64,000 bases of DNA from Candidatus Omnitrophota bacterium. Lineage in GTDB: Bacteria > Omnitrophota > Gorgyraeia > 2-01-FULL-45-10. The DNA lies in NCBI GenBank assembly GCA_903843285.1, contig CAIMPC010000063.1, positions 4,627-68,626 on the forward strand, written 5' to 3'. Positions 13,459-43,206 of this stretch are shown here, piece after piece. Numbering within the stretch: the stretch's first letter is position 1; each line of letters starts with the position of its first letter. Made by a program: the position numbers and the translations under genes. The notes under the pieces are model-generated. The model searched no databases. It was given only the letters and a program-made list of their open reading frames with translations, and was not told the DNA's origin.

Positions 13459-13470
13459 TTAGAGATTGCC

Positions 13471-14785: not shown

Positions 14786-14789
14786 AATG

Positions 14790-15296: not shown

Positions 15297-16789
15297 CTGA
15301 TAGCTCCGAATACTATATTCGCGTAGGACGTCCCGTTCATAAGCACGGCTACAGCGCCGTCTATGAATATCTTCCTTATACCCGGCATGAGTATAAACGG
15401 TGCGATAACCACAACGACCGCAAGAGATACCATGGCTGTATTAATCGCGATACATGCTTTTTTCATTACGATGGAAGCATCTGTTCCGACATCGAAAAGG
15501 ACGCATGTCATCGGTTTAAAATAGTAAGCCAGGGTCATAACCCCTACCAACGCGGCGATCAATGCAAGTATGGGATGCCCGGACTGCACGCATGCAAAAA
15601 TTATTATAAGCTTCGCCCAAAATCCACCCATCGGCGGAACACCGCATATCGACAGCGCGCTGAATAAAGCGGGATATCCCGTAGCCGGTGCCCTCCGGAT
15701 AACTCCGGATATTTTATCTATCTGTCTGGTGCCCATGAGACGTTCTATGGATCCCGACGTCAAAAATAGGAGCGACTTACTGATGCTATGGTTAAATATA
15801 TGGACGAGCGCCCCTAAAAAAGCCAGCGGGGTGGCCACGCCAAGCGCCAGAACCACATATCCGATCTGACTGACTGTAGAATATGCAAAGAGTCTCTTTA
15901 TGTCCGTTTGTCCGAAAGCCAATACCGCCCCTATTATCATCGATAACACTCCCAGAGCGATCAGTATCTGGCAAATCTGGACACTTGCGCCGAAGATGCT
16001 AAAAAATATTCTGGCTATTGCATATATACCGAGGGCCTTTATCAATACTCCGGAAAGCATGGCCGAGACTGGCGCAGGCGCAGATGAATGCGCATAGGCA
16101 AGCCATGCATGGAATGGCGCAAGCGCCGCTTTAAGGCCAAACCCCATCAGAAATAGGACGCTGACCAACTGCAATACCCTGGTCGCTCCCGAGGCGGCTA
16201 TCGCGCGCGCGATGCCGGCCATATTGAGCGTCGATGTATGTGCATAGAGAAATGCTATGCCTAAAAGTATGAAGCACGAAGCTACTGAGCCCATAATCGC
16301 ATATTTGAATGACGCTTCGAGCTCGTCCGCCTCGGTACCGAACGCCACGAGAAAATAAGCGGATATCGCCGCTATCTCCATAAAAACGTATAGATTAAAA
16401 ATATCGGAGGCGACGAGCACTCCGTTTATGCCCGCAAGCATTAAAAAGAATAACGCGTAGAACTTCCATTTATCCGTATACTTCTTCATATAGCCCGAGG
16501 AGTAAATCGCGACAAATAACGCCACTAAATTTACCGTGACGAGCATAAATACCGATAATCCATCTACGACGAGCGCAAGGCCCTCCGGAGGTAAAAAACC
16601 TGTTGTCCTATACAGCAAAAGATGGTTAGGGGCGGCATTCACTGACATAAGCGTGAATAGAGCTATTATGAAGAGCGATAGCGTAGTAAAAATTGCAAAT
16701 AAATCCTGGAGGCGCTCATCAGCTTTAGCTATAAGCACTGTTACGAACGCATTCCCCAGCGGCAATATCAGGAAAAAGGGTATCATCAT
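15293..16789 (-). CDS. mrpD: proton-translocating antiporter-like subunit (MrpD / NuoM-N family)
   Basis: 498 aa polytopic protein of the complex I antiporter-like family. Confidence 0.8.
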   Translation of the reverse strand: MMIPFFLILPLGNAFVTVLIAKADERLQDLFAIFTTLSLFIIALFTLMSVNAAPNHLLLYRTTGFLPPEGLALVVDGLSVFMLVTVNLVALFVAIYSSGYMKKYTDKWKFYALFFLMLAGINGVLVASDIFNLYVFMEIAAISAYFLVAFGTEADELEASFKYAIMGSVASCFILLGIAFLYAHTSTLNMAGIARAIAASGATRVLQLVSVLFLMGFGLKAALAPFHAWLAYAHSSAPAPVSAMLSGVLIKALGIYAIARIFFSIFGASVQICQILIALGVLSMIIGAVLAFGQTDIKRLFAYSTVSQIGYVVLALGVATPLAFLGALVHIFNHSISKSLLFLTSGSIERLMGTRQIDKISGVIRRAPATGYPALFSALSICGVPPMGGFWAKLIIIFACVQSGHPILALIAALVGVMTLAYYFKPMTCVLFDVGTDASIVMKKACIAINTAMVSLAVVVVIAPFILMPGIRKIFIDGAVAVLMNGTSYANIVFGAIR

Positions 16790-17127
16790 TATTCTTTAAG
16801 CCTATTTATTTTTGTAATATCGAACGTGCCGTATCTTTCATATATCCTTATTGCCAACGCCACCAACATAAGCATTACGGCCAGGCCTATTACTATGGCG
16901 GTAAGCGCAACCGCCTGCGGCAATGGATCTACGATATTTGTAATTGCTTGGTCGCGCGCAAGTATTGGCGAACGTCCCTGGGCGCGGTAGCCTATCAGAA
17001 TAAAGAACAGATTTACGGCATATTCCATTATGCCTATACCTATAATTATCTTTATGATATTCCTCTTTCTGACCGCGCAAAATAGCCCGATCGAGAATAG
17101 CACCAGACATAAAAAGTATGTGATCAT
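16789..17127 (-). CDS. mrpC: MrpC / NuoK-like subunit
   Basis: 112 aa, three TM helices, NuoK/4L-like. Confidence 0.75.
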   Translation of the reverse strand: MITYFLCLVLFSIGLFCAVRKRNIIKIIIGIGIMEYAVNLFFILIGYRAQGRSPILARDQAITNIVDPLPQAVALTAIVIGLAVMLMLVALAIRIYERYGTFDITKINRLKE

Positions 17128-17138
17128 AATCTAAACCT

Positions 17139-17543
17139 CTATTCGGAGCGTTTATCCGATTTTGGCACCAGTACGAGCGCAATAAATATTACAAAAAGCC
17201 CCACGCTCACTATGATCATCTCCGAGAGCGGCAGGATAAATTCGTTTCCGAAAATAGCCTTCGGATAGCCTTTAAAAATACCATACAGAAAGAGAATGGC
17301 CGCAGTGGCCATAAATAGGCGAAGAGTGCGGGCGCTTAGTAATTTTAAGGAGGCTTCCTTGCCGAATGCCAGCATTACATGGACGAGCGCCAGAGCCACT
17401 ATAACGCCGCCGGCAAATCCGCCGCCCGGAGCATCATGACCGTTAAACGTTATGTAGATGCCATAGAGAAGAATAAATCCGAGCGTGAGCTTTGTCACCG
17501 TCTTAACTATAAACGTCATACCCTTCTCGCTCTGGTGGTTCAT
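17139..17543 (-). CDS. mrpB: MrpB/MnhB subunit
   Basis: 134 aa with GHDAPGGGFAGG, the MnhB signature. Confidence 0.65.
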   Translation of the reverse strand: MNHQSEKGMTFIVKTVTKLTLGFILLYGIYITFNGHDAPGGGFAGGVIVALALVHVMLAFGKEASLKLLSARTLRLFMATAAILFLYGIFKGYPKAIFGNEFILPLSEMIIVSVGLFVIFIALVLVPKSDKRSE

Positions 17544-18070
17544 TATTCAGCGCCATCCCTTCGCCATGCCCTGCGCGCGATAGCAAGCACTCCTATTACG
17601 ACAGCGAATAACACCGAGGCCTCCCCGAGCGTATCGACAGCGCGATACCTGAGCATTATAGATTCCACTATATTGAGGTTCGCCGCCTTACCCTGGACGT
17701 GGCTCAGATATTCCTGCGACGTCTTGATGGCCGGATTCCCAAATGTGTGTATGTTAGCAAATGACAGATATGCAAATACTAAAAATAAGATCAGGAATAT
17801 AATCGTAGATATAGTATTGAAGGCCCACCTACCGGAAGTGCTGAACGGCAGGTCCTTCCTTATAGTAGCGCGTATAAGTATGATAAGGCTCAGTATCTCC
17901 ACGACGAGCTGCATTATAGCCAGATCCGGCGCCTTCATTACAAGAAACGCCATCGACAGCCCTATGCCCACAGCGCCTATCCCGATGACGCTCGACAGCA
18001 GATCTTTTACCTGAACGGCTATTAATGCCGCAGCGATCATGAATACTAATAAAATATTTATCTCTATCAT
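17543..18070 (-). CDS. MnhB-domain protein (MrpA C-terminal domain-like, MbhD/E type)
   Basis: 175 aa with NIVESIMLRYRAVDTLGE, the MnhB-domain motif. Confidence 0.55.
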   Translation of the reverse strand: MIEINILLVFMIAAALIAVQVKDLLSSVIGIGAVGIGLSMAFLVMKAPDLAIMQLVVEILSLIILIRATIRKDLPFSTSGRWAFNTISTIIFLILFLVFAYLSFANIHTFGNPAIKTSQEYLSHVQGKAANLNIVESIMLRYRAVDTLGEASVLFAVVIGVLAIARRAWRRDGAE

Positions 18071-18077
18071 CTATCCA

Positions 18078-19883
18078 TCACCTTAATGATAAGAACAGTA
18101 ACATAGCTATCATCCCGAGAAAACACCATACCAGATACGTCGGTAGCACTCCGTTATGCAGACGCTTAAGCGGCCGGGCTAAGACCTTAATGGCCCGTGC
18201 CGAGAGATAGTAAATATCCAGCCATCCCGACTGAGCCTGCTTACATATTCTGTTTATAGGTTTAATATCGGTGATCGTATCGTAAAACTCCATGCCGGAG
18301 ACGCGAGGTAAACTCTCCGGGTCCGCACCTCCTACAAAATTATCCACAACGCGAAAACTGCCGGGTCTAAACAGCCAGTACATAAGAGCCCCTATAGCTA
18401 TACCTACCAGTATAAGCAGTGCCGCAAGCGTTGAGCCCCATGTCCCTATATAAGTTAAGCTATTACCTATTGAAGGTAGTATCAATATCGGGATCGGGAT
18501 CTTAAAAGCGAAGACGCCGAATATGACGCAGATCGCGGCCAGGATCAGCATGGGCATATACATAAGAGGGCCCACCTCTTTCACTTCGCTCATGCCCTCC
18601 GAACGCCGGCCTAAAAAAACTGCGTGTAATAGTTTCATAAAGCACGCTATGGTTAGCGCGCCGCCGAACATTGCGGCCGAAAGCCATATGACCCATAATT
18701 TACCACCCTGATCTGCCGATTCTATAATGCCCTGATATATCATCCACTTTGATACGAAGCCATTAAATGGCGGAATACCGCAGATGGAGAGCGATGCTAT
18801 AAGACAAGCCGCAAATGTGATCGGCATGGCCCCGGCAAGCCCGCCCAGCCTATCGAGGTCCGAGGTTCCGGCCTTCTTCTCCACCGCCGTACTGGTCAAA
18901 AATAAGCATGCTTTATAGATGACGTGATTCAACATATGAAATAGCCCGCCTGCGATACCTATGACTGTCCCGCTGGCTATTCCTATTATCATATAACCGA
19001 CCTGCGATATAGATGTGTAAGCGAGCAGTTTCTTATAGTTGCGCTGGGCCAGGGCCAAGACTACAGCGAATATTATAGTGGCCGCTCCTGCGATAAGCAG
19101 GATAGTATTCGATATCTTCGTCATTTTAAATAGATCTAAAGAGACGCGCGCAAGCAGATAAATTCCCAGCAGTTTGTCCAGTGAAGTCGGCAGATAAGCG
19201 AGGAAGGAGCCCGATGTCGTCTCGGCTACATCGGGAAACCATGAGTGAAAAGGCATAGCCCCTGCTTTAGCGAAACTTGCCGAGGCGATCGAAAAATACG
19301 CCACATATGTCATGATACCGGCAATAGGAATTTGAATCTTATCCATAGATAGAGTGCCTGTAATAGCCGATACCAGCGCTATGCCGAACAACATTAAGAC
19401 ATCGGTACCGCCTATTATTATAAGAGCTTTACTGCTGGCTTTCGCCGAACATACCGTTTGGTCCAGATTAATAAACAGATATAGCATCAACGCCAGAAAA
19501 CCCCAGAAGATGAGCATAATGATAAGATTATTCGCAAATAGCGCCCCGAGTGAAGCGCCCAACGTAATTAGCATATATCCGAAATATCTTCCAAATGCCT
19601 TATCCGTGGAACCGAAAGAAAATATCGTTATCAGAAATGTAAATAAGGTCATCGCCATACCTATAAAAGAGGAAAGATTATCGGCGCGAAAAATAATCTG
19701 ATCCATATACTTCCAGACCAAAGGTTTTTCGATAAAAATGAATATGCCGCCGGCTAAGCATGCGGCTGATATGATGCCGGCAATAGATTTGGTGATGCCT
19801 TTTAACCTATCCGGCAATGGAAGGCATATTATACCGGATACGATCGGCCCGATGATCAGAAGTAATATTGGATTTGAAATCAT
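18078..19883 (-). CDS. mrpA: MrpA / NuoL-like antiporter subunit
   Basis: 601 aa, about 16 TM helices, NuoL/MrpA family. Confidence 0.8.
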   Translation of the reverse strand: MISNPILLLIIGPIVSGIICLPLPDRLKGITKSIAGIISAACLAGGIFIFIEKPLVWKYMDQIIFRADNLSSFIGMAMTLFTFLITIFSFGSTDKAFGRYFGYMLITLGASLGALFANNLIIMLIFWGFLALMLYLFINLDQTVCSAKASSKALIIIGGTDVLMLFGIALVSAITGTLSMDKIQIPIAGIMTYVAYFSIASASFAKAGAMPFHSWFPDVAETTSGSFLAYLPTSLDKLLGIYLLARVSLDLFKMTKISNTILLIAGAATIIFAVVLALAQRNYKKLLAYTSISQVGYMIIGIASGTVIGIAGGLFHMLNHVIYKACLFLTSTAVEKKAGTSDLDRLGGLAGAMPITFAACLIASLSICGIPPFNGFVSKWMIYQGIIESADQGGKLWVIWLSAAMFGGALTIACFMKLLHAVFLGRRSEGMSEVKEVGPLMYMPMLILAAICVIFGVFAFKIPIPILILPSIGNSLTYIGTWGSTLAALLILVGIAIGALMYWLFRPGSFRVVDNFVGGADPESLPRVSGMEFYDTITDIKPINRICKQAQSGWLDIYYLSARAIKVLARPLKRLHNGVLPTYLVWCFLGMIAMLLFLSLR

Positions 19884-19890
19884 CTGTTCC

Positions 19891-21081
19891 CTACTTTACA
19901 CCCATCTTCTCTCTTATCCTGCGCGTCTTCTCCTGCGAAAGCCTGATAAGATCCTCTGCCTTAAATAGTTCCTTATCGTTGGTATCCACCACTATCGCCC
20001 TCTCGGTACAGCAATAGCAAGGATCTATTGCGGCCATTATTATGGTCGCATCGGACACGGTTTCGCCCACAACGGTCTCTCTGAATGTCGGAAAGTTCAT
20101 GTAGGTCGGGGCGCGTATCTTATGGCGGACCGGTGAATTTGAGCCATCGCATTTTACATAATGGAAACATTCGCCCCGCGGCGCCTCTATCACTCCTATG
20201 CCCTCACCCGGAGGTATATCCTTAGGCTTCGCATCTATAGGCCCCTCCGCCATCTGGTCCAGGCACTGTCTGACGATACTTGCGGATTCAAACATCTCAA
20301 GCACCCTCACCACGGTCTTGGCGAAGACATCGCCTTCTTTCTGCGTAATTACATTCCACTTAACCTTCCTGTAGACACCATATGGATGATCGCGCCTTGC
20401 GTCTATATCTACTCCTGAGGCCCTTGCCACCGGTCCAAGCGCCGAATATTCTATAGCGGCCTCTTTAGTCAATATTCCTACGCCTTTCAGGCGCGCATGC
20501 AGTACTGGATCGTCGAGAATAGCGCCTTTAAGCATATCGAGTTGCTTTAAAAACTCGTCCAACCTGCTTAAGATGTAGGCGACGTGCTCTTTTTCTATAT
20601 CGCGCCTGACTCCGCCTACTTTATGCATAGCATAGTTCTGACGATTACCTGTGATGGTCTCCATTATGTCGCAAATCGGCTCTCTGTACTTCCATCCCCA
20701 CATGAAAACGGTATTGTAGCCAATGAAGTGGCCTGCCAGTCCGAGCCATAACATATGCGAATGTATCCTCTCGAGCTCCTGCGTAATGGTCCTTATATAC
20801 AGCGCCCTCTCGGGAACCTCAATACCGCATATATCCTCTATCGCCTCGACGCATGCTATAGGGTGGCTCGAAGAACATATCCCGCATATCCTCTCCACGA
20901 TAAAAAGCGACTGGTCAAAGCTCTTAGACTCGGATATTTTTTCGATTCCCCTATGGTTATAGCCAATCCTGACATCGACATCCACGACCTTCTCTCCCTC
21001 TACTATCAGCTTCCAAAACTCAGGCTCCTCCTGCAGAGGGTGATATGGCCCTATAGGTATAATTGATTTCTTATCGCTCAT
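19891..21081 (-). CDS. group 4 [NiFe]-hydrogenase large (catalytic) subunit, NuoD/EchE/MbhL-like
   Basis: 396 aa. It carries IPIGPYHPLQEEP...GYNHRGIEK, the L1 motif RICGICSSSH, EAPRGE, and the C-terminal DPCYCCTER (DPCxxCxxR) followed by a ~35-aa extension. Confidence 0.85.
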   Translation of the reverse strand: MSDKKSIIPIGPYHPLQEEPEFWKLIVEGEKVVDVDVRIGYNHRGIEKISESKSFDQSLFIVERICGICSSSHPIACVEAIEDICGIEVPERALYIRTITQELERIHSHMLWLGLAGHFIGYNTVFMWGWKYREPICDIMETITGNRQNYAMHKVGGVRRDIEKEHVAYILSRLDEFLKQLDMLKGAILDDPVLHARLKGVGILTKEAAIEYSALGPVARASGVDIDARRDHPYGVYRKVKWNVITQKEGDVFAKTVVRVLEMFESASIVRQCLDQMAEGPIDAKPKDIPPGEGIGVIEAPRGECFHYVKCDGSNSPVRHKIRAPTYMNFPTFRETVVGETVSDATIIMAAIDPCYCCTERAIVVDTNDKELFKAEDLIRLSQEKTRRIREKMGVK

Positions 21082-21545
21082 TCTTTCCTCGAATCTCTCT
21101 TAGGCACAATGAAACTTTTTCTCATGGGATAGACATCCTGAGGCCAGTCATCCGGCAGGAGGAGCCGTCTCATATCTTGATTGCCTTCAAAGTTCACTCC
21201 AAAGAGCTCGTGTATCTCCCTCTCTATCCACCATGCCGCCTTCATGACATGAGTAACGGTATCTATAGACGGGTTATCTTTATCGTTCAGCATCGTCCTC
21301 ACCGATACTATTAATCCGGACGGATCGTATGCGAAATGATACAGTATCTCTATCTTATCGAAGTCATCTACGGCGCTCGCTATATTAAACCTGAGGCCCA
21401 AGTCTTTAAACATATATCTGACGACCTCCACTATATCTCTGGGATAGATCTCCACATATGCTCTCCTGGACGATTTCTTCTCAACCTTAAGAACCTTATC
21501 ACCGAATCGGTCATTGATCTTTTTTAATACTTCATCCATCATCAT
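21078..21545 (-). CDS. NuoC-like (30 kDa) subunit
   Basis: 155 aa complex I 30-kDa family protein, overlapping the large subunit by 4 nt. Confidence 0.8.
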   Translation of the reverse strand: MMMDEVLKKINDRFGDKVLKVEKKSSRRAYVEIYPRDIVEVVRYMFKDLGLRFNIASAVDDFDKIEILYHFAYDPSGLIVSVRTMLNDKDNPSIDTVTHVMKAAWWIEREIHELFGVNFEGNQDMRRLLLPDDWPQDVYPMRKSFIVPKRDSRKE

Positions 21546-21979
21546 GATCTGATATCCTTCCCGGCCCTTACTTTACCGACCAGTTTTACCAGGGCCGCAA
21601 TAGTGGCCTCGGGCTTAGGCGGGCATCCCGGTATATATGCATCCACCGGTATTATCTCGTCCAGCGGGGCAAGCGTATTATAACTGTCTTTAAATAACCC
21701 GCGCGAGCATCCACATGCCCCATACACCACGACAAAACCCGGTTTCGGCATAGTCTCGTACAGTTTCTTTATTATCGGCACCGCCAACCTGTTGCAGGAT
21801 CCGGTGCATAGCATAATATCCGCATGTTTAATGCTTCCCACCAACACCAGGCCGAAACGCTCCAGATCGAAGCGCGGGGTAAGGGCATCGAGTATTTCTA
21901 TATCGCAGTTGTTACAGCTACCGCTCGATACGTGAAATATGTTTATCGATCTTGTCAGTACGAATTCTCTTAATCCCAT
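21542..21979 (-). CDS. [NiFe]-hydrogenase small subunit, NuoB-like (20 kDa)
   Basis: 145 aa with CNNCDIE...C...GCPP, the cysteines for the proximal [4Fe-4S] cluster. Confidence 0.85.
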   Translation of the reverse strand: MGLREFVLTRSINIFHVSSGSCNNCDIEILDALTPRFDLERFGLVLVGSIKHADIMLCTGSCNRLAVPIIKKLYETMPKPGFVVVYGACGCSRGLFKDSYNTLAPLDEIIPVDAYIPGCPPKPEATIAALVKLVGKVRAGKDIRS

Positions 21980-21980
21980 T

Positions 21981-22919
21981 CTATCTTCCCAAGTATGCTA
22001 AGGCTAATGACAATAACGCCAAGACTGTCACAACTCCCCAGAAGAACTTCATCGCCTGGTCGATACGTACGCGCGGATTTGTATTTTTTACCACTATCAT
22101 TAATATCAGGATCAATAGGTACTCTATCATGGCCTTTACGAGGCCATCAAGGCTTAATTTAATTCCTCCGAAGTACAGGGTTATTAAAAAGACGGGTATT
22201 ACGAATAAGAGCACGGCCCTGGCCAATTTAAATATCGCAAGCGCCTTCCCTGAATATTCAATATACGCCCCCGCCATTATCTCAGTCTCAGCCTCCGGCA
22301 TATCGAACGGCACAAAGCCAAGCTTCGCCTGAATACATATCAACATAACGAAGAAAGATATGCCTCCCGATGGGTTCATGAATATATCGCCATGTGATCT
22401 TTGGTACATTATGATATCGCCCAACCTTATCGCGCACCCACACTTCATTATCACAACTATAAGCGCAAGTATGAACGGCAGTTCGTATGACAGCATGAGC
22501 TTCATCTCTCTCGAAGAGCCAAGCGATGCCAGAGAGTTTGCGGATGCAAAGCCCCCGAGTATCAGAGCGACCGCCGGGATCAGCAGAAGATAGACGACCA
22601 CGATAACATCGCCGATGAAACCGGTGCGCGGAGAACCATTAATAAGAAAGAGTATCGTAGACACAAGGGTTGCGCTCGTAAGAGCTAATACCGGCATCCC
22701 CAGGAACATGGCCCCGGAGACACCGCTGGGTATGAGCGTCTCTTTGTATAAGGCCAGTTTGATCAGGTCTAAAAAGTTCTGATACCATGGCGGCCCGACT
22801 CTCCATTGAAGCCTGGCCGTGACCTTCCTGTCGATCCATCCGACTAAAAGCCCCATCGATCCGGAGAATAAAAGCCCCGGAAATATTAGGAATGCAAATA
22901 TGTATAATAGCGCCGTCAT
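21981..22919 (-). CDS. NuoH/HycD/MbhM-like membrane subunit
   Basis: 312 aa polytopic membrane protein of the complex I subunit 1 family. Confidence 0.8.
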   Translation of the reverse strand: MTALLYIFAFLIFPGLLFSGSMGLLVGWIDRKVTARLQWRVGPPWYQNFLDLIKLALYKETLIPSGVSGAMFLGMPVLALTSATLVSTILFLINGSPRTGFIGDVIVVVYLLLIPAVALILGGFASANSLASLGSSREMKLMLSYELPFILALIVVIMKCGCAIRLGDIIMYQRSHGDIFMNPSGGISFFVMLICIQAKLGFVPFDMPEAETEIMAGAYIEYSGKALAIFKLARAVLLFVIPVFLITLYFGGIKLSLDGLVKAMIEYLLILILMIVVKNTNPRVRIDQAMKFFWGVVTVLALLSLALAYLGR

Positions 22920-22937
22920 GTTATGCTTACTTTCTAT

Positions 22938-23441
22938 CTATCTCTTTTTTGGAAGCTCCAATATCCTGTCCCATTTGTATTTGGTCTTTATTAGAAGATA
23001 CTCCGATGCCCTAAATATACCCTCGTCTTTATTTTCATCGAATTCCCCAAATTTTATGCCCCCATGACTGCAGAACCCTAAACATACAGGGGTCTCTTCC
23101 CCCTTAATTCTTCCCAGACAATAGTCGCAGCATGCCGTCACAAGCGGTATCGTTTCAGGATATATCACGCCGAACGGGCACGCCCTCGAACATGATTTGC
23201 AGGAGGTACAGCGCATCGTGTATCGCTTTAGCGCATTATTCTCTTTAATGAGCTCCAGGGCCTCCCATGGGCATGAGGCGACACATGGCGCGTCATCGCA
23301 CCTTCGGCACACTACGGCGAAATGCGCAAATTCGCGCAGACTGGTTATGCCGTTGTTGTTCGGATGTTGTATATAACTGCATAACATCCCGCACTCTTCG
23401 CAGGCCGAACAGACATCGAGGTCTATAAGTAATCTTTTCAT
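22938..23441 (-). CDS. polyferredoxin, CooF/HycB-like electron-transfer subunit
   Basis: 167 aa with four Cys clusters (CSACEEC, CRRCDDAPCVASCP, CTSCKSCSRACP and CCDYC...C...C). Confidence 0.7.
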   Translation of the reverse strand: MKRLLIDLDVCSACEECGMLCSYIQHPNNNGITSLREFAHFAVVCRRCDDAPCVASCPWEALELIKENNALKRYTMRCTSCKSCSRACPFGVIYPETIPLVTACCDYCLGRIKGEETPVCLGFCSHGGIKFGEFDENKDEGIFRASEYLLIKTKYKWDRILELPKKR

Positions 23442-23445
23442 GTCA

Positions 23446-24276
23446 TCAGTCCCAAATATTGGGCAAATCTTTTATCTTATCGTAAGGGAATACCGGGCCA
23501 TCTTTACAGGCATAATAGGGCCCTATCCTGCAATGACCGCATTTACCGATCCCGCACGACATATTCTTCTCCATCGAGAGATATATCTGATCTTCTTTAA
23601 AACCCAGGTCCATAAGTTTAAATGTTGCAAACTTCATCATAATAGGAGGCCCGCACACTATCGAGACAGCATTATTTACGTCGAGTCCTTCCGTCTTCAA
23701 TATCGTGGTGACCAGCCCTACGTGTCCGCTCCATGAAGCATCTCCCACGTCGCACGATACTAAAACATCTACATGATCGGCCCGGTCCTTCCAGGTACCT
23801 ATCTCATCCTTATAGACTATATCGCCGCTAGAGCGCGCGCCATATCTAAGTATTATCTTCTTATAATCGTTCACTTCGTTAAAGAGCGCGTATAGCAATG
23901 CCCTGAGAGGGGCAAGTCCGACGCCTCCGCCGACTATAAAAACTTCTTTGCCTTTAAATAGATCGAGCGGATATTTTGTTCCATACGGTCCGCGCAGACC
24001 CACGGTATCTCCCGGCTTCAGCTGGTGAATGAGCTTAGTAACGCGTCCTGCGCTCATTATGGTGAAATCGAGCGTACCTTTATGGTCATGGTTAGACGAA
24101 GGAGTGAACGGCGCTTCACCCACGCCCGGCAGGGTCACATCCATGAACTGACCGGCCCTGAAAGAGATATCCTCGCTGGGTTTCAGCGTAAATGTCTTTA
24201 TGTTGGAGGTCTCTTCGGCTACCTTCAGGACTTCCGCGTTAATAAAAGCATATGGATTTTTTTTACAATTAATCAT
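23446..24276 (-). CDS. FAD/NAD(P)-binding oxidoreductase with C-terminal [2Fe-2S] (HydG / AsrB / PyrK-like)
   Basis: 276 aa ferredoxin-reductase fold with the C-terminal cluster CGIGKCGHCRIG...C. It overlaps the upstream gene by 8 nt. Confidence 0.75.
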   Translation of the reverse strand: MINCKKNPYAFINAEVLKVAEETSNIKTFTLKPSEDISFRAGQFMDVTLPGVGEAPFTPSSNHDHKGTLDFTIMSAGRVTKLIHQLKPGDTVGLRGPYGTKYPLDLFKGKEVFIVGGGVGLAPLRALLYALFNEVNDYKKIILRYGARSSGDIVYKDEIGTWKDRADHVDVLVSCDVGDASWSGHVGLVTTILKTEGLDVNNAVSIVCGPPIMMKFATFKLMDLGFKEDQIYLSMEKNMSCGIGKCGHCRIGPYYACKDGPVFPYDKIKDLPNIWD

Positions 24277-25318
24277 GCGGTGGCTTATTCCATCTTTCCA
24301 GTACCAGGCCCTTCAATACTTCCCTTATGTCTATATCTCCGGGGCATGCTTCAATGCACCTACCACAGCCGGTGCAGGCGAAATAGTTGAGCACCGCGGG
24401 AAAGAATTCAAACTTCTTATCGAACCTGTTGCGAAGCCGCTCATAAAGATGTTTTCGAGGGTTGTGGTTTCCGGCGACCCTGGCGAAAGTGTTATATAAG
24501 CAGGCGTCCCATGCCCTGAAGCGTTTTACCCCGGAGGCATCTTTCTCATCGAACAATAAGAAACAGTGGCATGTGGGACAAGCCAGGTTGCACGCCCCGC
24601 ACTCCACGCAGGTCGACGCCATAGCAGTCCAGAATTCGGTCCGGTCGTAATTCTTTTTAACCATGCCCTTAATCTTGGTAGTATTCGGAGTCTCTCTTTT
24701 ACTGATAAAACCTTCTATCTGTTTCGTAACCCTATCGCGAAGCGACTGCCTCACATCGATCGAATGGATCGGCACAAGCTTAAAGAATGTTCTGAAGTCA
24801 TCCACTATCTTTTGCCCTTTTGGGCTTCCCACCTCGACCAAGAAATAATTATCTACCGATGCTATAGATAAATCGAAAAACTTTCTGGGATACGGAGCAC
24901 CTTCCATCGCCATACAGAAACAAGTCTCCTTGGCATAAGTGCAATCTGCGGCAATTATCGTCGTATTCTTTCTGCTCTGGACATAAAAAGGATCCTCGAC
25001 ATCGCCATCCTGAAATACAAAGTCCTGCAGGACAAGGCTCGATAGATCGCAGCCTTTTACTCCGGCCACAATGAGCGGACGCCTGTCTGTCGGATCGGTT
25101 CCGATCATCCTCTCTCTAACCGGGCTTATGAACGATTTAAACGGTTGGCTCTGTCTGATACCACCCAGTTCTATGCTATCTTCTTTGGCAGAGTTAAAAT
25201 CATCGAAAAATAATTTATCACCATTCAAATAAGGCACAACCACTCTACTGCTTATAGCGAGTCTGCCGAATAAGTCGAATAAGTCTTTCTTTGATATGAT
25301 ATAAGTATTATTTTGCAT
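24269..25318 (-). CDS. 4Fe-4S dicluster protein, HydB / AsrA-like (hydrogenase beta-type subunit)
   Basis: 349 aa with CVECGACNLACPTCHCF and a second Cys cluster CTGCGRCIEACP. It is the first gene after the internal promoter. Confidence 0.7.
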   Translation of the reverse strand: MQNNTYIISKKDLFDLFGRLAISSRVVVPYLNGDKLFFDDFNSAKEDSIELGGIRQSQPFKSFISPVRERMIGTDPTDRRPLIVAGVKGCDLSSLVLQDFVFQDGDVEDPFYVQSRKNTTIIAADCTYAKETCFCMAMEGAPYPRKFFDLSIASVDNYFLVEVGSPKGQKIVDDFRTFFKLVPIHSIDVRQSLRDRVTKQIEGFISKRETPNTTKIKGMVKKNYDRTEFWTAMASTCVECGACNLACPTCHCFLLFDEKDASGVKRFRAWDACLYNTFARVAGNHNPRKHLYERLRNRFDKKFEFFPAVLNYFACTGCGRCIEACPGDIDIREVLKGLVLERWNKPPHD

Positions 25319-25373: not shown

Positions 25374-26408
25374 CTAACAAATCCTGGGAAGCTGATCGCC
25401 TGAAAGCATACCCAGTATCCGCTTGCCGCCAGAAACGGTTTCCAGAATAACTCTTCCGGGGTTATCCTCAGTTACTCTACCGATAGTTCTACTGCCGCGG
25501 CCAACCTTTTCGGAACGCATCGCTTTCAAAATGTCCTTCTCAGCCCCTTTCGCGGCTATTATAATAACCCTGCCCTCGCAGGCGAGATACAACGGATCGA
25601 GGCCGAGAAGCTCACAGGCCTGCCTCACGCCCTCTCGCGCAGGCACTACCGCCTCATCCACTACGATACCGAATTTTGCCGGCGAGGCTATCTCATTAAG
25701 TGTTGTCGCAACGCCGCCTCTGGTGGGGTCGCGCATAAAACGGACCTCTTTCGAGGAGCGCAGCACCTTGCGAATCATTCCGTAGAGAGGCGCGGAATCG
25801 CTCTTCACTAAAGTATCGAATGCTATTCCCTCCCGCTTCGAAATAACACTGATCGCATGGTCACCTATAGGTCCGCTGACGATCACGCAATCACCCGCCA
25901 TTAAATTATTTACCGAGAGATCATCATAATAGACCTCTCCTATCCCGCTTGTGTTAATAAATATCTTGTCACATGCCCCCCGCTCGACAACTTTGGTATC
26001 GCCTGTGACTATTTGAACCTCTGCTGTGGAGGCGGCCCTCGCCATCGAATCTACTATCCGATCCAGCACGCTTCTATCCAGGCCTTCCTCTATGACTGCG
26101 CCGACGGATATGTAAAGAGGCCTGGCGCCGCATACAGACAGATCGTTAACTGTCCCATAAAGTGCAAGGCTTCCGATGTCACCACCGGGAAAAAATATAG
26201 GCTTCACCACATATGAGTCCGTGGTAAACGCTATCTTTTTATCTCCGATCTTTATGATTGCGGAATCCTTCTTTTGATTCAATATGGGATTTGAAAATCG
26301 TTTTAGAAATACGGAATCGATCAGCTTATGCATCTGGCTTCCGCCGCTTCCGTCCGCCATGGTTATATTAGTCATTTTAAATATTTCCGTATTTGTAATA
26401 AGCCGCAC
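25374..26408 (-). CDS. hypE: hydrogenase maturation factor HypE
   Basis: 344 aa AIR-synthase-like protein ending in PRIC. Confidence 0.9.
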   Translation of the reverse strand: MRLITNTEIFKMTNITMADGSGGSQMHKLIDSVFLKRFSNPILNQKKDSAIIKIGDKKIAFTTDSYVVKPIFFPGGDIGSLALYGTVNDLSVCGARPLYISVGAVIEEGLDRSVLDRIVDSMARAASTAEVQIVTGDTKVVERGACDKIFINTSGIGEVYYDDLSVNNLMAGDCVIVSGPIGDHAISVISKREGIAFDTLVKSDSAPLYGMIRKVLRSSKEVRFMRDPTRGGVATTLNEIASPAKFGIVVDEAVVPAREGVRQACELLGLDPLYLACEGRVIIIAAKGAEKDILKAMRSEKVGRGSRTIGRVTEDNPGRVILETVSGGKRILGMLSGDQLPRIC

Positions 26409-27459
26409 ACGTTCCTTCGCCCGAGACCATGCACGAACCGACCGGACGCTCCGGGGTGCACCTATTGCCGAATAATTTGCACTCGTCGGGTCTTTTCATG
26501 CCCCTAAGAACCATTCCGCAAATGCACGCTTTATTCTCTAGGGCAGGGGCCAATTTAACTTTAAATCTCAATGCGGCGTCGAAGTCCGAAAATTCTCTTC
26601 TTATCCTCAGTCCGCTTCGGGCTATTCTTCCGATACCTCTCCATTCGGCAGGACTTTCTTCAAAAACCCTATTCACGATCTTTCGCGCCAGCGGGTTCCC
26701 TTTTGAATCGATAACTCTTCTATACTGCACTTCTACCCTGGGCGAAGATTGCCTCAATAGCATGAGTATCGACTGCAATATATCGATAGGTTCAAACCCG
26801 GCCACAACAGCTCCGATTCCATACTTTTTGGAAATAAATCCGTACGGCTTCGTGCCTATTATTGCGCTTACATGCCCCGGCAGAAGAAACCCATCGATAA
26901 GATTATCGCCGGATGAGGCTATAGATTCAAGCGCCGCAGGCATTGTCTTATGCGCAGATAAAACGGAGTAGTTGGCTATACCCTCTCTCTTTGCTTCGAG
27001 TATCGATGCCGCCACGGTGGGGACTGTCGTCTCAAAACCGACCCCGAGAAAAACCACCTGCTTATCCGGGTTTCTTCCGGCAATATCTATGGCATCGTCC
27101 GTCGAGTAAACTATCTTTATTTCTCTGCCGCTGGCCCTCTCTTTTTCAAGGCTCGAGCGCGATCCGGGCACACGCATCATATCCCCAAATGTCGCAATAA
27201 TAACGTTGGGCAGTTTCGCTATCGCGATGGCGCGATCCAGATAACCATTCGGAGTAACGCACACAGGGCATCCCGGACCGGAGAGCAATTTTATATTTGC
27301 GGGCAATAGACTGCGCAAACCGAACTTAAAGATCGCCATCGTATGCGTCCCGCACACTTCCATGTACCTGTATTCAAAACGCTCATCCACTGACCTACGT
27401 ATCTGTTCGGCCAGCTTTTTGGTAAGGGTGAGGCTTCTGAATTCGTCTATGTATTTCAT
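26377..27459 (-). CDS. hypD: hydrogenase maturation factor HypD
   Basis: 360 aa with GPGCPVCVTP and CGTHTMAI motifs. Confidence 0.9.
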   Translation of the reverse strand: MKYIDEFRSLTLTKKLAEQIRRSVDERFEYRYMEVCGTHTMAIFKFGLRSLLPANIKLLSGPGCPVCVTPNGYLDRAIAIAKLPNVIIATFGDMMRVPGSRSSLEKERASGREIKIVYSTDDAIDIAGRNPDKQVVFLGVGFETTVPTVAASILEAKREGIANYSVLSAHKTMPAALESIASSGDNLIDGFLLPGHVSAIIGTKPYGFISKKYGIGAVVAGFEPIDILQSILMLLRQSSPRVEVQYRRVIDSKGNPLARKIVNRVFEESPAEWRGIGRIARSGLRIRREFSDFDAALRFKVKLAPALENKACICGMVLRGMKRPDECKLFGNRCTPERPVGSCMVSGEGTCAAYYKYGNI

Positions 27460-29126
27460 TTCTTTTCTAAGGTCATAGGATTGAACCTATTCTTTGCAAA
27501 TATATACCAGGCCGCGCATGATACAAATCCTTTCGAAGAGTCTACCCACTCATAACCGCCCGTCTTGTTAACGGTGTAAGGTAACGCCCTGGTTCTCCTG
27601 GAGGATATATTCCTATCGAACAATAATTTATCCATCTGATTTGCATAAAAGTATCCGCGCCCGGAATCACCATAAGCCATATATGCGCACGCCATGTGAC
27701 CGTTACCGTCCACCCAGATATTATTTACCTCTATATCCGGGCCATGAAAAAAACCCACAACCTTTTCATCCAGAATATCCAATGTCTTTCTGTACCTTAA
27801 GTCATACTCCGGTATATTAAGTAGATCTTTATATTCTTCACCCATCGCCAGCACTCGCCATGAATAGTTATCTAATGCCAGGGCCGGGCCCTTAACATTC
27901 GCATCTATCCACCCCTTAATCTTCGCGGCATATTCGTCTTCTTTGCATAGCCTCATCGCCGCATAGCAGTCAATATTAGCCTCCGGATGCCCATAGCCTT
28001 CGTGAAGCTTCTCATCGTTGTTACGCCAGCCATGCTGTATGTAGCCGCCGGGCTTATCGTCTTTATAATAGAAGGTTAAAAGATCTCTTATAAGCTTTAT
28101 TATCGTGTCATACCTGTCGGACTTATACTCTTTCTGGTAGTATTTATAGGCTATTAAAAGCCAGGCCATGTCTCCTATCCATCTGTCTGTACCCGCCGGA
28201 GCGTGATAAGCCTTTACCGGACCGGTATCATTCAATAACACCGATTGATAGAAACCGCGCGGCGAGCCTTTATAAAAGAAGTTCTGCAATGTCGGATCGT
28301 CATTGTTTACCCGTGTGGCATTCGCATAAAAATCCAATATTCGCTCTGCCCTTTCTCGCTCGCCTTTCAGAATGAATGCTATCGCTACGATACTGTTATT
28401 AAACGTCTGGGCAATATTATCTTCCATTGAGGATACGAGGGCCTTATCGCCTGATGATGTATCCTGCATGGCTTTCAGATATTCCAGCACCAGCGGGTCT
28501 TCCGCTATAAGCTCGGCGTCGCGCCTGGGCCTGAAACCATTACCCGGCAATTCCCTGTCCGGGTCCAGGACCGCTCCGCCCATACCGAAGCTCGCCTCGT
28601 CACCCGGTGTGCCGGGGCCGATCTCATCTATCATTACACTACCGCTTCCTCTGCCTGATATCGCAATCTCAAAGGTCACTATCTGATCTAATTTATCATC
28701 GCCGCCCCACCAATGGTCCGCATTATAAGAATATATGACGACTTTGGTCCATTCAGTGTACCTTTTAAGAGGAACCTTCTTTCCGAAGATAGAGCCGTCG
28801 ACGTCTATGAACTTCATTTCTATATCGCCGGCCCCGCCTGCTTTTATATAAAATTCTATCGGATCATTCTCGGTTATCCTGCCGGCCACAACTTTGGCGA
28901 GCGAAACCCATCCGGAATTTTCCTTAAGCATGTAATTTATCTCTAATGCCTGCGCCTGCCTGCCATCAAACGGTTTCACCGTAACCCAGCAACCATCGGC
29001 GGCATTGGTCGACCACTGGGACACATCGTTCCACAGCTCGGCAGATTCGCCGGCTATTGAAACGAACGACAAAATGGCCGTCAGACAGAAGATCGTTATT
29101 ATGCCTATTGATATTTTCACGCGCAT
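27456..29126 (-). CDS. secreted hypothetical protein; N-terminal CBM-like beta domain plus alpha/alpha-toroid-like domain
   Basis: 556 aa with a signal peptide (MRVKISIGIITIFCLTAILSFVSIAG). Its stop overlaps the hypD start by 4 nt (ATGA). The function call is weak. Confidence 0.45.
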   Translation of the reverse strand: MRVKISIGIITIFCLTAILSFVSIAGESAELWNDVSQWSTNAADGCWVTVKPFDGRQAQALEINYMLKENSGWVSLAKVVAGRITENDPIEFYIKAGGAGDIEMKFIDVDGSIFGKKVPLKRYTEWTKVVIYSYNADHWWGGDDKLDQIVTFEIAISGRGSGSVMIDEIGPGTPGDEASFGMGGAVLDPDRELPGNGFRPRRDAELIAEDPLVLEYLKAMQDTSSGDKALVSSMEDNIAQTFNNSIVAIAFILKGERERAERILDFYANATRVNNDDPTLQNFFYKGSPRGFYQSVLLNDTGPVKAYHAPAGTDRWIGDMAWLLIAYKYYQKEYKSDRYDTIIKLIRDLLTFYYKDDKPGGYIQHGWRNNDEKLHEGYGHPEANIDCYAAMRLCKEDEYAAKIKGWIDANVKGPALALDNYSWRVLAMGEEYKDLLNIPEYDLRYRKTLDILDEKVVGFFHGPDIEVNNIWVDGNGHMACAYMAYGDSGRGYFYANQMDKLLFDRNISSRRTRALPYTVNKTGGYEWVDSSKGFVSCAAWYIFAKNRFNPMTLEKK

Positions 29127-29131: not shown

Positions 29132-29338
29132 CTATATATCCTTCGCCAGTTCGATGGTTTTTTTTGCTTCATCGGGTTTAATCTTAGCTATCGCGAAACC
29201 GGCATGCAAAAGAATATAGTCTCCCAATTTTACATTTTTAAGCAGCGTAAAATTCACTTTACGCTTAAGGCCCATCGACTCCACCACACCATTATTCCCG
29301 TCGATCTCAATAACCTTCATAGGTATAGCTAAGCACAT
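29132..29338 (-). CDS. hypC: hydrogenase maturation factor HypC
   Basis: 68 aa starting MCLAIPMKV. Confidence 0.85.
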   Translation of the reverse strand: MCLAIPMKVIEIDGNNGVVESMGLKRKVNFTLLKNVKLGDYILLHAGFAIAKIKPDEAKKTIELAKDI

Positions 29339-30456
29339 ATTTTCCTCGCCTCGGCGATAGCGACCTGCCCTATCGGTATCCCGTAATCGTTTGTATTGAC
29401 CGCGGATTGCGTATAAGCATCAAACCCATTCTTATTTAATAACGATAGCGCCTTCTTCTTAAGGTACATATTTTGGAAGACGCCGCCGCTTAATGCAACC
29501 TTATCTATATGAACTTTTTTGCGTAGGCGTATTGCAACATCGGTAATCACCCCGGCCATGGTATTATGAAACTTTGCCGATATAATATTACTACGCAGCC
29601 CTTTATCCATATCCGAAAGGATCCCCTTGATCGTCATAGACATATCGATTAAATACATCTCGTCCTCATACATGATATCAAATTTATAACATCCATTGCA
29701 CAATTCATCAGCTATCTTCTCAAGCTCTATCGGAAGCTCTGCTTCATAAGCCGCAAAGGCCTTAGCTAATACGATACTGGCTACGGCATCAAATAACCTG
29801 CCTGCGCTGGAGGTGAGCGGTGAGTTCATCCTCTCGTCGATCATCTTCCTTAATAACTTAAATCGTTTAACGCTAATCGTCTTCATGCAATATAGATCTG
29901 AATATGCTAGTTTTACGCCAAATGCCTTATAGAGATAGCTTACAGCCATCCGCCAGGGTTCGATCACTGCCGCATCACCCCCCGGCATGGGCACATAGCT
30001 AAAATGGGCAACTCTGGAGAAACTCTGTGCCCGGCCGATAAAAAACTCGCCGCCCCATATACAGCCATCAGGCCCATATCCTGTGCCATCAAATGCTATA
30101 CCTACCACTTCGGTCTTAATGCAATGTTCCGTGATCGCGCTGGCGATGTGTGCCTCATGGTGTTGCACATCGCAAATTTTTGCCCCCAACTCGGATGCAT
30201 GATCTCGGGCGAAACTACTGGAAAAATATGCCGGGTGAAGATCGCACACTACGATGGATGGTTTTATATTGAGCTTACTCTCGTGCGATTTTATAGCCGC
30301 CTCATATGCATTAAGATTATCAGGGTCATATAGTTCACCGAAACCATCGACCAGATATGCCCTGTCTGCCTTGGCGAGTGCGAATGCGCCCTTCATATCC
30401 GCCCCGCACGCCAGTATCGGAACCTTAACCTTAAACGGAAGTTCTACAATCTTCAT
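29329..30456 (-). CDS. hypF: HypF carbamoyltransferase, C-terminal Kae1/YgjD-like domain only (truncated HypF)
   Basis: 375 aa with ILACGADMKGAFALA, VCDLHPAY, VQHHEAHIAS, GIAFDGTGYGPDGCIWGGEF and ALSGGVFQN. It has no acylphosphatase, Zn-finger or YrdC domain, and only 110 bp of non-coding DNA lies upstream. Confidence 0.75.
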   Translation of the reverse strand: MKIVELPFKVKVPILACGADMKGAFALAKADRAYLVDGFGELYDPDNLNAYEAAIKSHESKLNIKPSIVVCDLHPAYFSSSFARDHASELGAKICDVQHHEAHIASAITEHCIKTEVVGIAFDGTGYGPDGCIWGGEFFIGRAQSFSRVAHFSYVPMPGGDAAVIEPWRMAVSYLYKAFGVKLAYSDLYCMKTISVKRFKLLRKMIDERMNSPLTSSAGRLFDAVASIVLAKAFAAYEAELPIELEKIADELCNGCYKFDIMYEDEMYLIDMSMTIKGILSDMDKGLRSNIISAKFHNTMAGVITDVAIRLRKKVHIDKVALSGGVFQNMYLKKKALSLLNKNGFDAYTQSAVNTNDYGIPIGQVAIAEARKICA

Positions 30457-30479
30457 TTCGCTCCGAGATTGTTCACTAT

Positions 30480-30530
30480 ATTATACCGCGCGGGGTTTGT
30501 AACCTGGCATATCTAACCCAGGTTAGATAT
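30480..30530 (-). promoter_or_regulatory. promoter -10 TATAAT plus upstream palindrome ATATCTAACC-CA-GGTTAGATAT in front of hypF
   Basis: A minus-strand TATAAT lies at fwd 30480-30485, about 24 nt before the start. A 22-bp near-perfect palindrome lies at 30509-30530, about 23 nt upstream of the -10. Nearly the same palindrome recurs at 59921-59941. Confidence 0.35.
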
Positions 30531-30566: not shown

Positions 30567-31370
30567 CTACACCACCACTATTGATATACCCTTTTGGTCG
30601 GCGAAGGATACAATCGTATCCCTGTCTATAAGGAGAGTCTTCTCTGCTTCTAAAGCGAGCGCTGTTCCCCCTGCTCTTGCTAAGGCCTCTACCGTATCGA
30701 GACCCACCAAAGGGATATCGAACCTCATATCCTGGTTGGGCCTAGCCATCTTGACAAGGACAAATCCTTTCTTCGACAGGTTACCCGCCCTGGCGATGGC
30801 TTCATCCGTCCCCTCGACCGCCTCGAGAGCAATTACGGTCTTGTTTTTAACAATAACGGTCTGGCCTATATCGAACCTGGCCAACTCTCTGGCAACAGTC
30901 TTAGCATAATCGATATCTTCCGACTCTTCTTTGTCCGGCTCCCTCTTCGTGATAATGCCTTTGGCGGGCATCAATTCCTTCAAATACGGGGTCGGATCGA
31001 TGATCTCTATCCCGAACTTCGCCAGAAATTCCGACACCTTATTAAGCATCGAGTAATCTTTATTGTCCCCGAGCTTGGTCAGCAGGGATTTTGTCTTCTC
31101 ATCGAATTTCCCGTCATCCTTAAAGAAAAGGTCTTTCTTTATTTTACCCAGAAGAACCACCTTATTTATTCTATTAGAAAGAACTGCAAATATCATCTTC
31201 TGTAAGGCTCCGAATTCGAACCAGATGAATTTATCAACATGATTTTCTAAATCGGTTGCGGTCATTCCATTAATGCCTATACCAACCACTTTATCACCAA
31301 GTCGTCTTGCGTTGTCCGCGAATATTATCGGGAGCCTTCCGGCGCCCGCCACCAAACCTATATTAGCCAT
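30567..31370 (-). CDS. lpxI: UDP-2,3-diacylglucosamine hydrolase LpxI (DUF1009)
   Basis: 267 aa with GLVAGAGRLP, DIGQTV, EAVEGTDEAIAR and DIPLVG, matching the LpxI pattern. Confidence 0.7.
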   Translation of the reverse strand: MANIGLVAGAGRLPIIFADNARRLGDKVVGIGINGMTATDLENHVDKFIWFEFGALQKMIFAVLSNRINKVVLLGKIKKDLFFKDDGKFDEKTKSLLTKLGDNKDYSMLNKVSEFLAKFGIEIIDPTPYLKELMPAKGIITKREPDKEESEDIDYAKTVARELARFDIGQTVIVKNKTVIALEAVEGTDEAIARAGNLSKKGFVLVKMARPNQDMRFDIPLVGLDTVEALARAGGTALALEAEKTLLIDRDTIVSFADQKGISIVVV

Positions 31371-42680: not shown

Positions 42681-43166
42681 CTAAAGTTCGATATCCTCGT
42701 CGTCCATCATCACATGAGGCTTTGGAGCCTGGGTGCGCAACGGTACATGAGGTGCCGGCTGATGCGAGAGAGCGGGAGAAGGAGACTTCTTCTCTTTATC
42801 GTATGCCTCGAGCACCTTCTTCTGTATATAATCTCTGCACTCCGCAGTTATCGGGTGCGCTATATCCTTATGTTCGGACTCCCTGACTGAGCCATCAGCA
42901 CCCGATGCCGGCGCCTTATGTTCGCTCGGAGGCAGAGAAGATCCGCAATTATTGCAATATTTGCTCCTTGCCGCATTTCTGAAATTGCACTTCGGACACG
43001 GATCTTTCACTTTTCTCGAAGGCATAGCGACAAATAGTCCCTTTGTGCCCTCTATGACTTTTACGTTTCTCACGACAAACATGTTGTCGAGCGTAATCGT
43101 CGCATAAGCCTTCAGCTTCTTGTCCTGCCCCTCTTTCATAAAAATCTTTACTTCCGTGATATCCAT
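42681..43166 (-). CDS. spoVG: SpoVG-family protein with an inserted zinc ribbon and an acidic C-terminal tail
   Basis: The protein starts at the ATG at 43166 with MDITEVKIFMKEG...ATITLDNMFVVRNVKVIEG..GLFVAMPSRK. A CPKC...CNNC ribbon follows, and KDIAHPIT resumes the SpoVG fold. The ORF-track upstream extension is doubtful. Confidence 0.7.
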   Translation of the reverse strand: MDITEVKIFMKEGQDKKLKAYATITLDNMFVVRNVKVIEGTKGLFVAMPSRKVKDPCPKCNFRNAARSKYCNNCGSSLPPSEHKAPASGADGSVRESEHKDIAHPITAECRDYIQKKVLEAYDKEKKSPSPALSHQPAPHVPLRTQAPKPHVMMDDEDIEL

Positions 43167-43206
43167 TGCATGCTCCTCAAATTTGAGAAATACTTTTACC
43201 TCTAAA

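Follow-up and report, generated by a model that had tools for sequence, protein, structure and literature searches.

Can a HypF protein that has kept only its last module still work as an enzyme, and which enzyme would then feed it? The question is raised by a 64,000-nucleotide stretch of DNA from a Candidatus Omnitrophota bacterium (assembly GCA_903843285.1, contig CAIMPC010000063.1, positions 4,627 to 68,626), referred to below, at its full length, as the window. An ATG-initiated open reading frame (ORF) located at 29329-30456 on the minus strand encodes here a protein of 375 amino acids (aa), recognized by Pfam, by the NCBIfam family TIGR00143 and by an AlphaFold2 model as a stand-alone Kae1-like carbamoyltransferase domain of HypF. 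The gene, called hereafter short hypF, is intact, and is neither a pseudogene nor an artefact. Its product is probably a functional, free-standing version of the last HypF module, encoded by the first gene of a hypF-hypC-(orf556)-hypD-hypE unit found upstream of a hydrogenase.

The protein is covered by two Pfam domains, HypF_C at residues 11-110 (profile positions 3-99 of 99) and HypF_C_2 at residues 119-364 (positions 1-241 of 241), and nothing else is found in it. The first-pass annotation, made from the letters of the sequence, had described it in the same way, as the 375-aa Kae1-like part of HypF only. Acylphosphatase (PF00708) was not detected by Pfam at E<=0.01, and neither were zf-HYPF (PF07503), which accounts for the two zinc-finger motifs of canonical HypF, and Sua5_yciO_yrdC (PF01300), the YrdC-like adenylating domain. 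In NCBIfam the protein matches positions 382-739 of the 741 that make up TIGR00143 (hypF), with a score of 246.7 bits, lower than the equivalog cut-off of 466.1 bits. Several short HypFs of Omnitrophota are named 'hypothetical protein' in NCBI, which fits a TIGR00143 score below the cut-off. Alignment to full-length HypFs, suggested earlier as a check, confirmed the boundary of the domain. Against C. subterraneus HypF (761 aa, 3vth) the short protein covers residues 394-746, and against E. coli HypF approximately residues 383-743, window residue 5 being aligned to E. coli residue 383. Its N-terminus lies 3 residues ahead of the segment 'LP...ILACGA', which in full-length HypFs comes after RGY(V/A)P, where the YrdC domain ends; the truncation falls therefore exactly at the YrdC/Kae1 inter-domain boundary. 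Assignment to other families of similar fold found no support. The score is 31.2 bits, versus a cut-off of 296.1, for TIGR03723, the TsaD-type transferase of N6-threonylcarbamoyladenosine (t6A) synthesis, and 22.7 bits, versus a cut-off of 207.8, for TIGR00329 (TsaD/Kae1/Qri7). Similarly, no Pfam match was obtained to the NodU/CmcH/TobZ O-carbamoyltransferase families (Carbam_trans_N, PF02543, and the YrdC-like Carbam_trans_C). One homologue, P0006, has a precomputed PF02543 match marked 'faint'.

The best 120 homologues found in a collection of 5.8 billion proteins are 259-403 aa long (median 376), are 50-64% identical to the window protein and carry only the same two Kae1-type domains. Those that are named belong to Candidatus Omnitrophota/Omnitrophica. 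The predicted metal ligands H99, H103, D123 and D357 (the HxxxH / D / D site), corresponding to H475, H479, D502 and D727 of E. coli HypF, are invariant in 120/120. In a set of 26 sequences having 36-64% identity to the window protein 37 columns are invariant, and clade-specific substitutions are found at G38/F39 and L241/P242. The AlphaFold2 model built on the alignment of the homologues has a mean predicted local distance difference test (pLDDT) value of 94.5 and a predicted template modelling (pTM) score of 0.92. Foldseek superimposes it on HypF (3vth/3vti) with a template modelling (TM) score of 0.93 and a root-mean-square deviation of 1.5 Å; TsaD/Kae1 proteins, the next-best structures, reach TM scores of about 0.55.

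The genetic context is conserved as well. The array rpsF-ssb-rpsR-rplI-dnaB-bamA-skp-lpxC-fabZ-lpxI-(glnA)-hypF(short)-hypC-(orf554)-hypD-hypE-hydrogenase is found also on Omnitrophota contigs of 206 kb and 321 kb, and a relative with 42% identity (P0146, locus L033) resides in the same hyp-hydrogenase cluster. In every Omnitrophota-type locus examined the short gene is part of a hypF-hypC-hypD-hypE unit adjoining a hydrogenase. About 40 of the best 150 matches among 1.84 billion representatives (50% clustering) are complete short forms, in which the start codon is followed by 5-25 residues and then by the motif ILACGAxxK. The sharp pile-up of starts at the domain boundary is unlike the even spread which random fragmentation would leave. 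Outside this clade, a Clostridia-labelled metagenome-assembled genome (MAG) encodes the series HoxH-HycI-HypA-HypB-short HypF-HypC-HypD-HypE, and at locus L047 short hypF-hypC-hypD-hypE are followed by hypA. Of about 67 HypF loci that could be evaluated in a generic sample, 65 have the N-terminal half and just 2 are short. Short HypF is thus rare overall, yet is the rule in this lineage. A metagenome scan made with the short-HypF alignment relied on generic motifs, retrieved mostly full-length HypFs, and was used as a baseline only. Searches of the literature found nothing linking Omnitrophota to HypF, or HypF to a missing acylphosphatase domain. Two distinct sets of short hypF-hypC-hypD-hypE, each with a HypF 55% identical to the window protein, were found on contigs 59 and 87 of CAYSSS01 (L002 and L003), a single MAG labelled 'uncultured Planctomycetia'; they result either from a real duplication or from a mixed or mislabelled bin.

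A HypF reduced to the Kae1-like domain has been known since 1998 in Cupriavidus necator (Ralstonia eutropha) H16, where it is called HypF1 (394 aa, WP_011153939.1, megaplasmid pHG1). This precedent was not mentioned in the first-pass annotation, whose description of the anatomy of the protein is otherwise sound. HypF1 shares only 28% identity with the window protein. In a neighbour-joining tree of the Kae1 domain (200 bootstraps) it is sister to the full-length HypF2 of the same organism with 98% support, the two being 50% identical, and the E. coli and C. necator sequences are split from all others with 95.5% support. The window protein falls in a clade made of short forms only, the inner part of which (8 representatives) has a support of 0.79; deeper nodes are not resolved. 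Monophyly of all short HypFs was considered and abandoned, since bootstraps give it no support beyond the moderate value of the inner clade. The position of HypF1 next to HypF2, along with its low identity to the window protein, indicates that the Kae1-only truncation arose at least twice, and that the Omnitrophota form is independent of C. necator HypF1. The architecture is therefore not new in itself; new is an independently derived, lineage-wide form of it in Omnitrophota. The separate origin and the conservation in a hyp operon beside a hydrogenase argue that the short form is functional as it stands.

As to what the protein may do, we infer that it is catalytic, that HypE is its target and that the adenylate is supplied in trans. 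Short HypF, as a Kae1-like carbamoyltransferase of the ASKHA fold, would transfer the carbamoyl group to HypE's C-terminal cysteine, and HypE would dehydrate the carbamoylated cysteine to the thiocyanate from which the CN ligands are made. The first two half-reactions of HypF, hydrolysis of carbamoyl phosphate and formation of the adenylate, are beyond the short protein, and have to take place elsewhere. Another enzyme must turn carbamoyl phosphate into carbamate and, with ATP, the carbamate into carbamoyl-AMP, which would then be handed to short HypF much as free TsaC gives threonylcarbamoyl-AMP to TsaD. Supply in trans seems the most reasonable mechanism, and the same has been proposed for C. 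necator HypF1 (PMC9100943). A stand-alone tsaC/yrdC gene had been noticed in the window and tied to this step. The gene, coding for an L-threonylcarbamoyladenylate synthase, is indeed found at 56428-57051 on the minus strand, matches Sua5_yciO_yrdC in Pfam and passes TIGR00057 (205 bits versus a cut-off of 123). It is the only YrdC-fold (PF01300) gene of the window, located 26 kb from short hypF among purine and glycine genes (pur, glyA, rpiB), and its product is weakly similar to the YrdC domain of E. coli HypF (E 3e-4). Of the earlier proposal, supply in trans is retained as a mechanism; the link to tsaC, while possible, found no support, the gene looking like an orthodox t6A tsaC, and as a source of carbamoyl adenylate tsaC is only a candidate.

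Several points weigh against a short HypF working in this way. No supplier of carbamoyl-AMP was identified. By its score tsaC is an ordinary t6A enzyme, and nothing ties it to the hyp genes. The literature searched reports no biochemical activity for any Kae1-only HypF. C. necator hypF1 failed to restore an E. coli hypF mutant, in which it was also not clear that the protein had been made (PMC5350229); in E. coli HypF1 seemed inactive, and even inhibitory, under anaerobic conditions, and it has been suggested that carbamoyl adenylate is sufficient for it only under aerobic conditions (PMC9100943). HypF is moreover described as a three-site enzyme with an internal protective tunnel, which shields the labile carbamate and passes both carbamate and carbamoyl-AMP between sites (PMC12134894). 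As the acylphosphatase, zinc-finger and YrdC domains are gone, the tunnel is gone too, and the Kae1-only protein is without the feature stressed by structural work for the protection of carbamate. Finally, the view is limited to 64 kb of this genome and to +/-10 kb of related contigs, and one HypF of full architecture, P0314 (721 aa), carries the label 'Candidatus Omnitrophica'.

The last two points would fit an alternative in which a full-length hypF located elsewhere does the work, or provides the carbamoyl-AMP, the short copy being a redundant, auxiliary paralogue. This is the situation of C. necator, where HypF1 (394 aa) coexists with the full-length HypF2 (807 aa) on pHG1, whereas the window has no full-length gene in its 64 kb. 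P0314 is encoded by a contig of 2.3 kb, for which binning is unreliable. The copy which resides in the hyp unit beside the hydrogenase is always the short one in the Omnitrophota-type loci, the best 120 homologues are all short, and the nearest named full-length relatives come from other phyla, Sumerlaeota and Elusimicrobiota. When the N-terminal half of P0184 was used as query for an Omnitrophota N-half or full-length HypF, one partial protein of full architecture labelled Omnitrophica, on a 2.3-kb contig, was retrieved, and nothing else that could be assigned. In the KEGG orthology (KO) counts of Seymour et al. 2023, consulted here for three genomes, a Velamenicoccia MAG (GenomeID 231, 92.7% complete) has hypA, hypC, hypD, hypE and hypF (K04656) once each, along with carB, one tsaC and a protease, and hypB is missing from these counts (PMC10066038); its hypF may be either short or full-length. 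On balance, a redundant paralogue is unlikely. A broader proposal can be made tentatively: in much of the Omnitrophota the Kae1-only protein may be the only HypF, and HypB, perhaps with HypA, may be missing, so that the Hyp set would be reduced and carbamoyl-AMP, coming from outside the Hyp system (a moonlighting TsaC or an unrecognized enzyme), would be handed over in trans without a tunnel.

A further alternative is that no adenylate supplier is needed, the Kae1-only enzyme taking the carbamoyl group straight from carbamoyl phosphate, whether or not ATP takes part, or from a different donor, at its own nucleotide/metal site. The nucleotide-binding ASKHA fold and the intact metal site would suit such a reaction, as would the conservation of the short form over deep divergence without a linked partner gene, and the carB gene counted in the one Omnitrophota MAG mentioned above. 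We know of no precedent, however, for a Kae1-type carbamoyltransfer that does without an adenylate made by a YrdC-fold module. In HypF, in TobZ-type enzymes and in the TsaC/TsaD pair the adenylate is in each case made by such a module (PMC9633730, and general knowledge), and direct use of another donor is accordingly rated as quite improbable.

Much less credit is due to the idea that the ORF is the degenerate remnant of a formerly full-length hypF, one of the options left by the first-pass annotation. It is true that half of the canonical protein is gone, and that the score is under the equivalog cut-off. The ORF is nonetheless intact and both domains are present at full profile coverage. The invariant columns are shared by divergent sequences and the catalytic residues by all 120 homologues, the AlphaFold2 model is confident, and start site, -10 element and hypC overlap are all conserved, as is the short form itself across a deep clade. 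A pseudogene was ruled out by conservation and by the structure model, and a remnant is very improbable.

A frameshift or a misjoin cutting a full-length gene has to be considered because such cases exist in public data. At L031 (8857-11116), L035 (6001-8386) and L036 (6001-8404) the N- and C-terminal halves of HypF adjoin and make up one gene. At L035 and L036 further genes nearby (PdxJ, LytB, FolD) are split as well. These adjoining halves are frameshift artefacts, and make split or short HypFs seem more numerous in protein databases than they are. A natural 'split HypF' was looked for as a precedent and rejected, as the N-terminal halves P0342 and P0325 and the 'short' P0245 all adjoin their missing half, on contigs of long-read style. 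Tblastn searches of the kind that readily finds the adjoining N-halves of true artefacts were carried out with two queries at E<=1 over 228 kb, corresponding to the window and 14 Omnitrophota-type loci. They detected no HypF N-half, the sole near-exception being a weak YrdC-type match to tsaC. The upstream neighbour bounding the locus is lpxI (30567-31370, minus strand; Pfam LpxI_N and LpxI_C), which occupies the same position in L026 and L028; the spacer separating it from short hypF measures 110 bp, the value reported at first. In seven Omnitrophota-type loci from independent assemblies a stop closes the frame 3-45 codons ahead of the hypF start. The frameshift to an upstream frame that had been raised as an objection was thus checked and is excluded, because only 110 bp separate the gene from the end of lpxI, and none of the frames of the window codes for an N-half; with the same short gene and the same start in many independent assemblies, a sequencing or assembly artefact is scarcely conceivable.

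The absence of hypA and hypB, noted earlier within about 20 kb, extends to the whole window. Five HypA and three HypB queries found neither gene by tblastn (E<=1) in the same 228 kb, and Pfam found no HypA, CobW/HypB or Mrp/MinD-type ATPase among the unassigned ORFs of the window. The same HypA and HypB queries, like those for the HypF N-half, did find targets in other phyla. The fact stands, but not the emphasis placed on it: missing hypA and hypB genes near hypF carry little weight alone, because 7 of 21 full-length hypF loci with 10-kb flanks, taken as control from the metagenome scan, also have neither. The HypA encoded at L034, used as query, gave 30 matches; the named ones are from Elusimicrobiota, Endomicrobiales and, in one case, Actinomycetota, and L034 is therefore probably not from Omnitrophota.

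Short hypF may be transcribed from a start of its own. A -10-like element, TATAAT, was read from the sequence on the minus strand at 30480-30485, 23 nt before the ATG, and a GGAG tract at 30461-30464 precedes the start codon. The motif TGnTATAAT (TTGATATAAT in L002) is found just upstream of the hypF ATG in L001, L002 and L004-L007. A generic promoter scan, taken alone, gave nothing above chance. Taken with the motif of the relatives, TATAAT and GGAG suggest that short hypF heads its own transcription unit, and the closeness of TGnTATAAT to the ATG suggests that the leader is very short or absent. A 22-bp palindrome, ATATCTAACC-tg-GGTTAGATAT, perfect in its 10+10 arms and with no strand assigned, lies at 30509-30530 between the lpxI stop codon and the -10 element, and is a possible operator.

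On the minus strand, to which all features of the window described from here on belong, skp, lpxC, fabZ, lpxI, the spacer, short hypF, hypC, a 556-aa ORF, hypD, hypE, the hydrogenase genes and HycI follow one another from 33.3 to 12.4 kb. The presence of hypC, hypD and hypE, already recorded, was borne out by Pfam and NCBIfam. hypC (29132-29338; 68 aa, beginning with MCLAIP; Pfam HupF_HypC 1-64 of 65; TIGR00074) overlaps the end of hypF by 10 nt, as in L028 and in C. necator hypF1/hypC. hypD is located at 26377-27459 (Pfam HypD 3-351 of 351, E 2e-147), and hypE at 25374-26408 (TIGR02124, 429 bits versus a cut-off of 252). HypE ends with ...LPRIC, and its final cysteine is the site carbamoylated by HypF. 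The 556-aa ORF found between hypC and hypD (27456-29126) encodes a protein whose N-terminus is hydrophobic and resembles a signal peptide, and for which no match was obtained in Pfam, NCBIfam or the sequences of the Protein Data Bank. Orthologues with 69-70% identity are found at the same position in L005 (11360-13000), L028 (11339-13003) and L029 (1443-3107), and are absent from L002-L004, L006, L007, L026 and L033. The ORF is an odd passenger for a maturation operon.

The [NiFe]-hydrogenase cluster assigned by Pfam at 12838-25318 is of the membrane-bound type of group 4 and includes Mrp-type subunits. The same cluster is present in L026, L028 and L033, and group 4g Mbh-Mrp hydrogenases have been described in Omnitrophota (PMC8542988). 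The large subunit (19891-21081) has the motifs RICGICSSSH and DPCYCCTER and a C-terminal extension; having kept the nickel-iron ligand motifs, it needs a full pathway of cofactor assembly. A HycI-type maturation endopeptidase (Pfam HycI) is encoded at 12357-12851. The cluster includes also a Fer4_22 / FAD-NAD / Fer4_11 module (22938-25318), made of a Fer4_22 protein (349 aa), a FAD/NAD-binding protein (276 aa) featuring a DHODB-type Fe-S domain, and a Fer4_11 protein (167 aa). The module directly precedes NuoH/B/C/D-like hydrogenase genes and is conserved in L026 (14963-17499), L028 (18705-21067) and L033 (14703-17037). The three genes resemble the beta/gamma subunits of sulfhydrogenase, or AsrAB-type proteins, which hints at a membrane-bound hydrogenase linked to NAD(P)H. 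A 200-aa protein with a PhoU domain is encoded at 13471-14073, between an MnhG-like subunit and a 2x[4Fe-4S] protein of the hydrogenase/Mrp cluster. In relatives a gene of the AbpE_bact family and a NIL/4Fe-4S ferredoxin gene come after hypE (L026 13658-14795, L028 15090-16783, L033 13436-14577), contiguous with it in L026 and L033 and about 560 bp apart in L028. The window has neither of them, its hydrogenase genes directly following hypE. Elsewhere in the window (42681-43361) a SpoVG homologue was found in which the 82-position profile is spread over 124 residues; the extra stretch matches a zinc ribbon (residues 122-144), so that the protein is a SpoVG with an inserted zinc ribbon.

The interest of the short form lies in the source of carbamoyl-AMP, and in whether a lineage does without the N-terminal half of HypF and without HypB. 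C. necator HypF1, the one truncated form that has been studied, has been treated so far as an oddity (PMC5350229, PMC9100943). In Omnitrophota the Kae1-only protein is the conserved form of a deep, anaerobic lineage, located in a hyp operon beside a hydrogenase, and is a natural case in which to ask what enzyme provides carbamoyl-AMP for the synthesis of cyanide ligands. If it were the sole HypF and HypB were missing, a reduced Hyp set would be enough to mature the [NiFe]-hydrogenase of an anaerobe. As short HypFs score below the NCBIfam HypF cut-off and several are labelled as hypothetical proteins, pipelines that require a full HypF match could overlook the capacity for hydrogenase maturation in such genomes.

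Compared with known systems, the closest in organization is C. necator HypF1. The two proteins have the same start, residues 1 and 5 of HypF1 being aligned to residues 1 and 5 of the window protein, and match TIGR00143 alike (HypF1 383-740, 247.9 bits; window protein 382-739, 246.7 bits). The metal residues H100, H104, D124 and D361 of HypF1 align with those of the window protein, and the two loci agree in the order hypF-hypC-hypD-hypE and in the overlap of 10 nt between hypF and hypC. HypF1 has been called 'an unusually truncated version' (PMC5350229), featuring 'only one of three domains' and likely in need of carbamoyl adenylate; the source of carbamoyl-AMP is a question common to both proteins (PMC9100943). 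The two differ in setting. In C. necator HypF1 is encoded directly after hypA1-hypB1 and serves the O2-tolerant uptake hydrogenases of an aerobe, whereas in the window hypA and hypB are not nearby and the gene is associated to a group-4 hydrogenase of anaerobe-type Omnitrophota. In 1998 hypF1 and hypF2 were reportedly found by Wolf and colleagues to be interchangeable in C. necator.

In canonical HypFs, such as those of E. coli (b2712, 750 aa), C. subterraneus (3vth/3vti) and T. kodakarensis (4g9i), the C-terminal Kae1-like domain is homologous to the short protein throughout. With 3vth the latter shares 35% identity, a TM score of 0.93 and the same metal ligands. The partners are also the same, namely hypC, hypD and hypE, with a HypE ending in PRIC. 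What distinguishes the short form is the lack of the acylphosphatase domain, of both zinc-finger motifs and of the YrdC-like domain. A separation of this kind has a natural precedent in the TsaC/TsaD (YrdC/Kae1) pair, in which a YrdC-fold enzyme makes threonylcarbamoyl-AMP and a separate, metal-dependent Kae1-fold enzyme carries out the transfer (PMC7913687, and general knowledge). The pair illustrates how an acyl-adenylate may be handed over in trans; the acceptor of short HypF would be a protein cysteine and not, as for TsaD, A37 of a tRNA.

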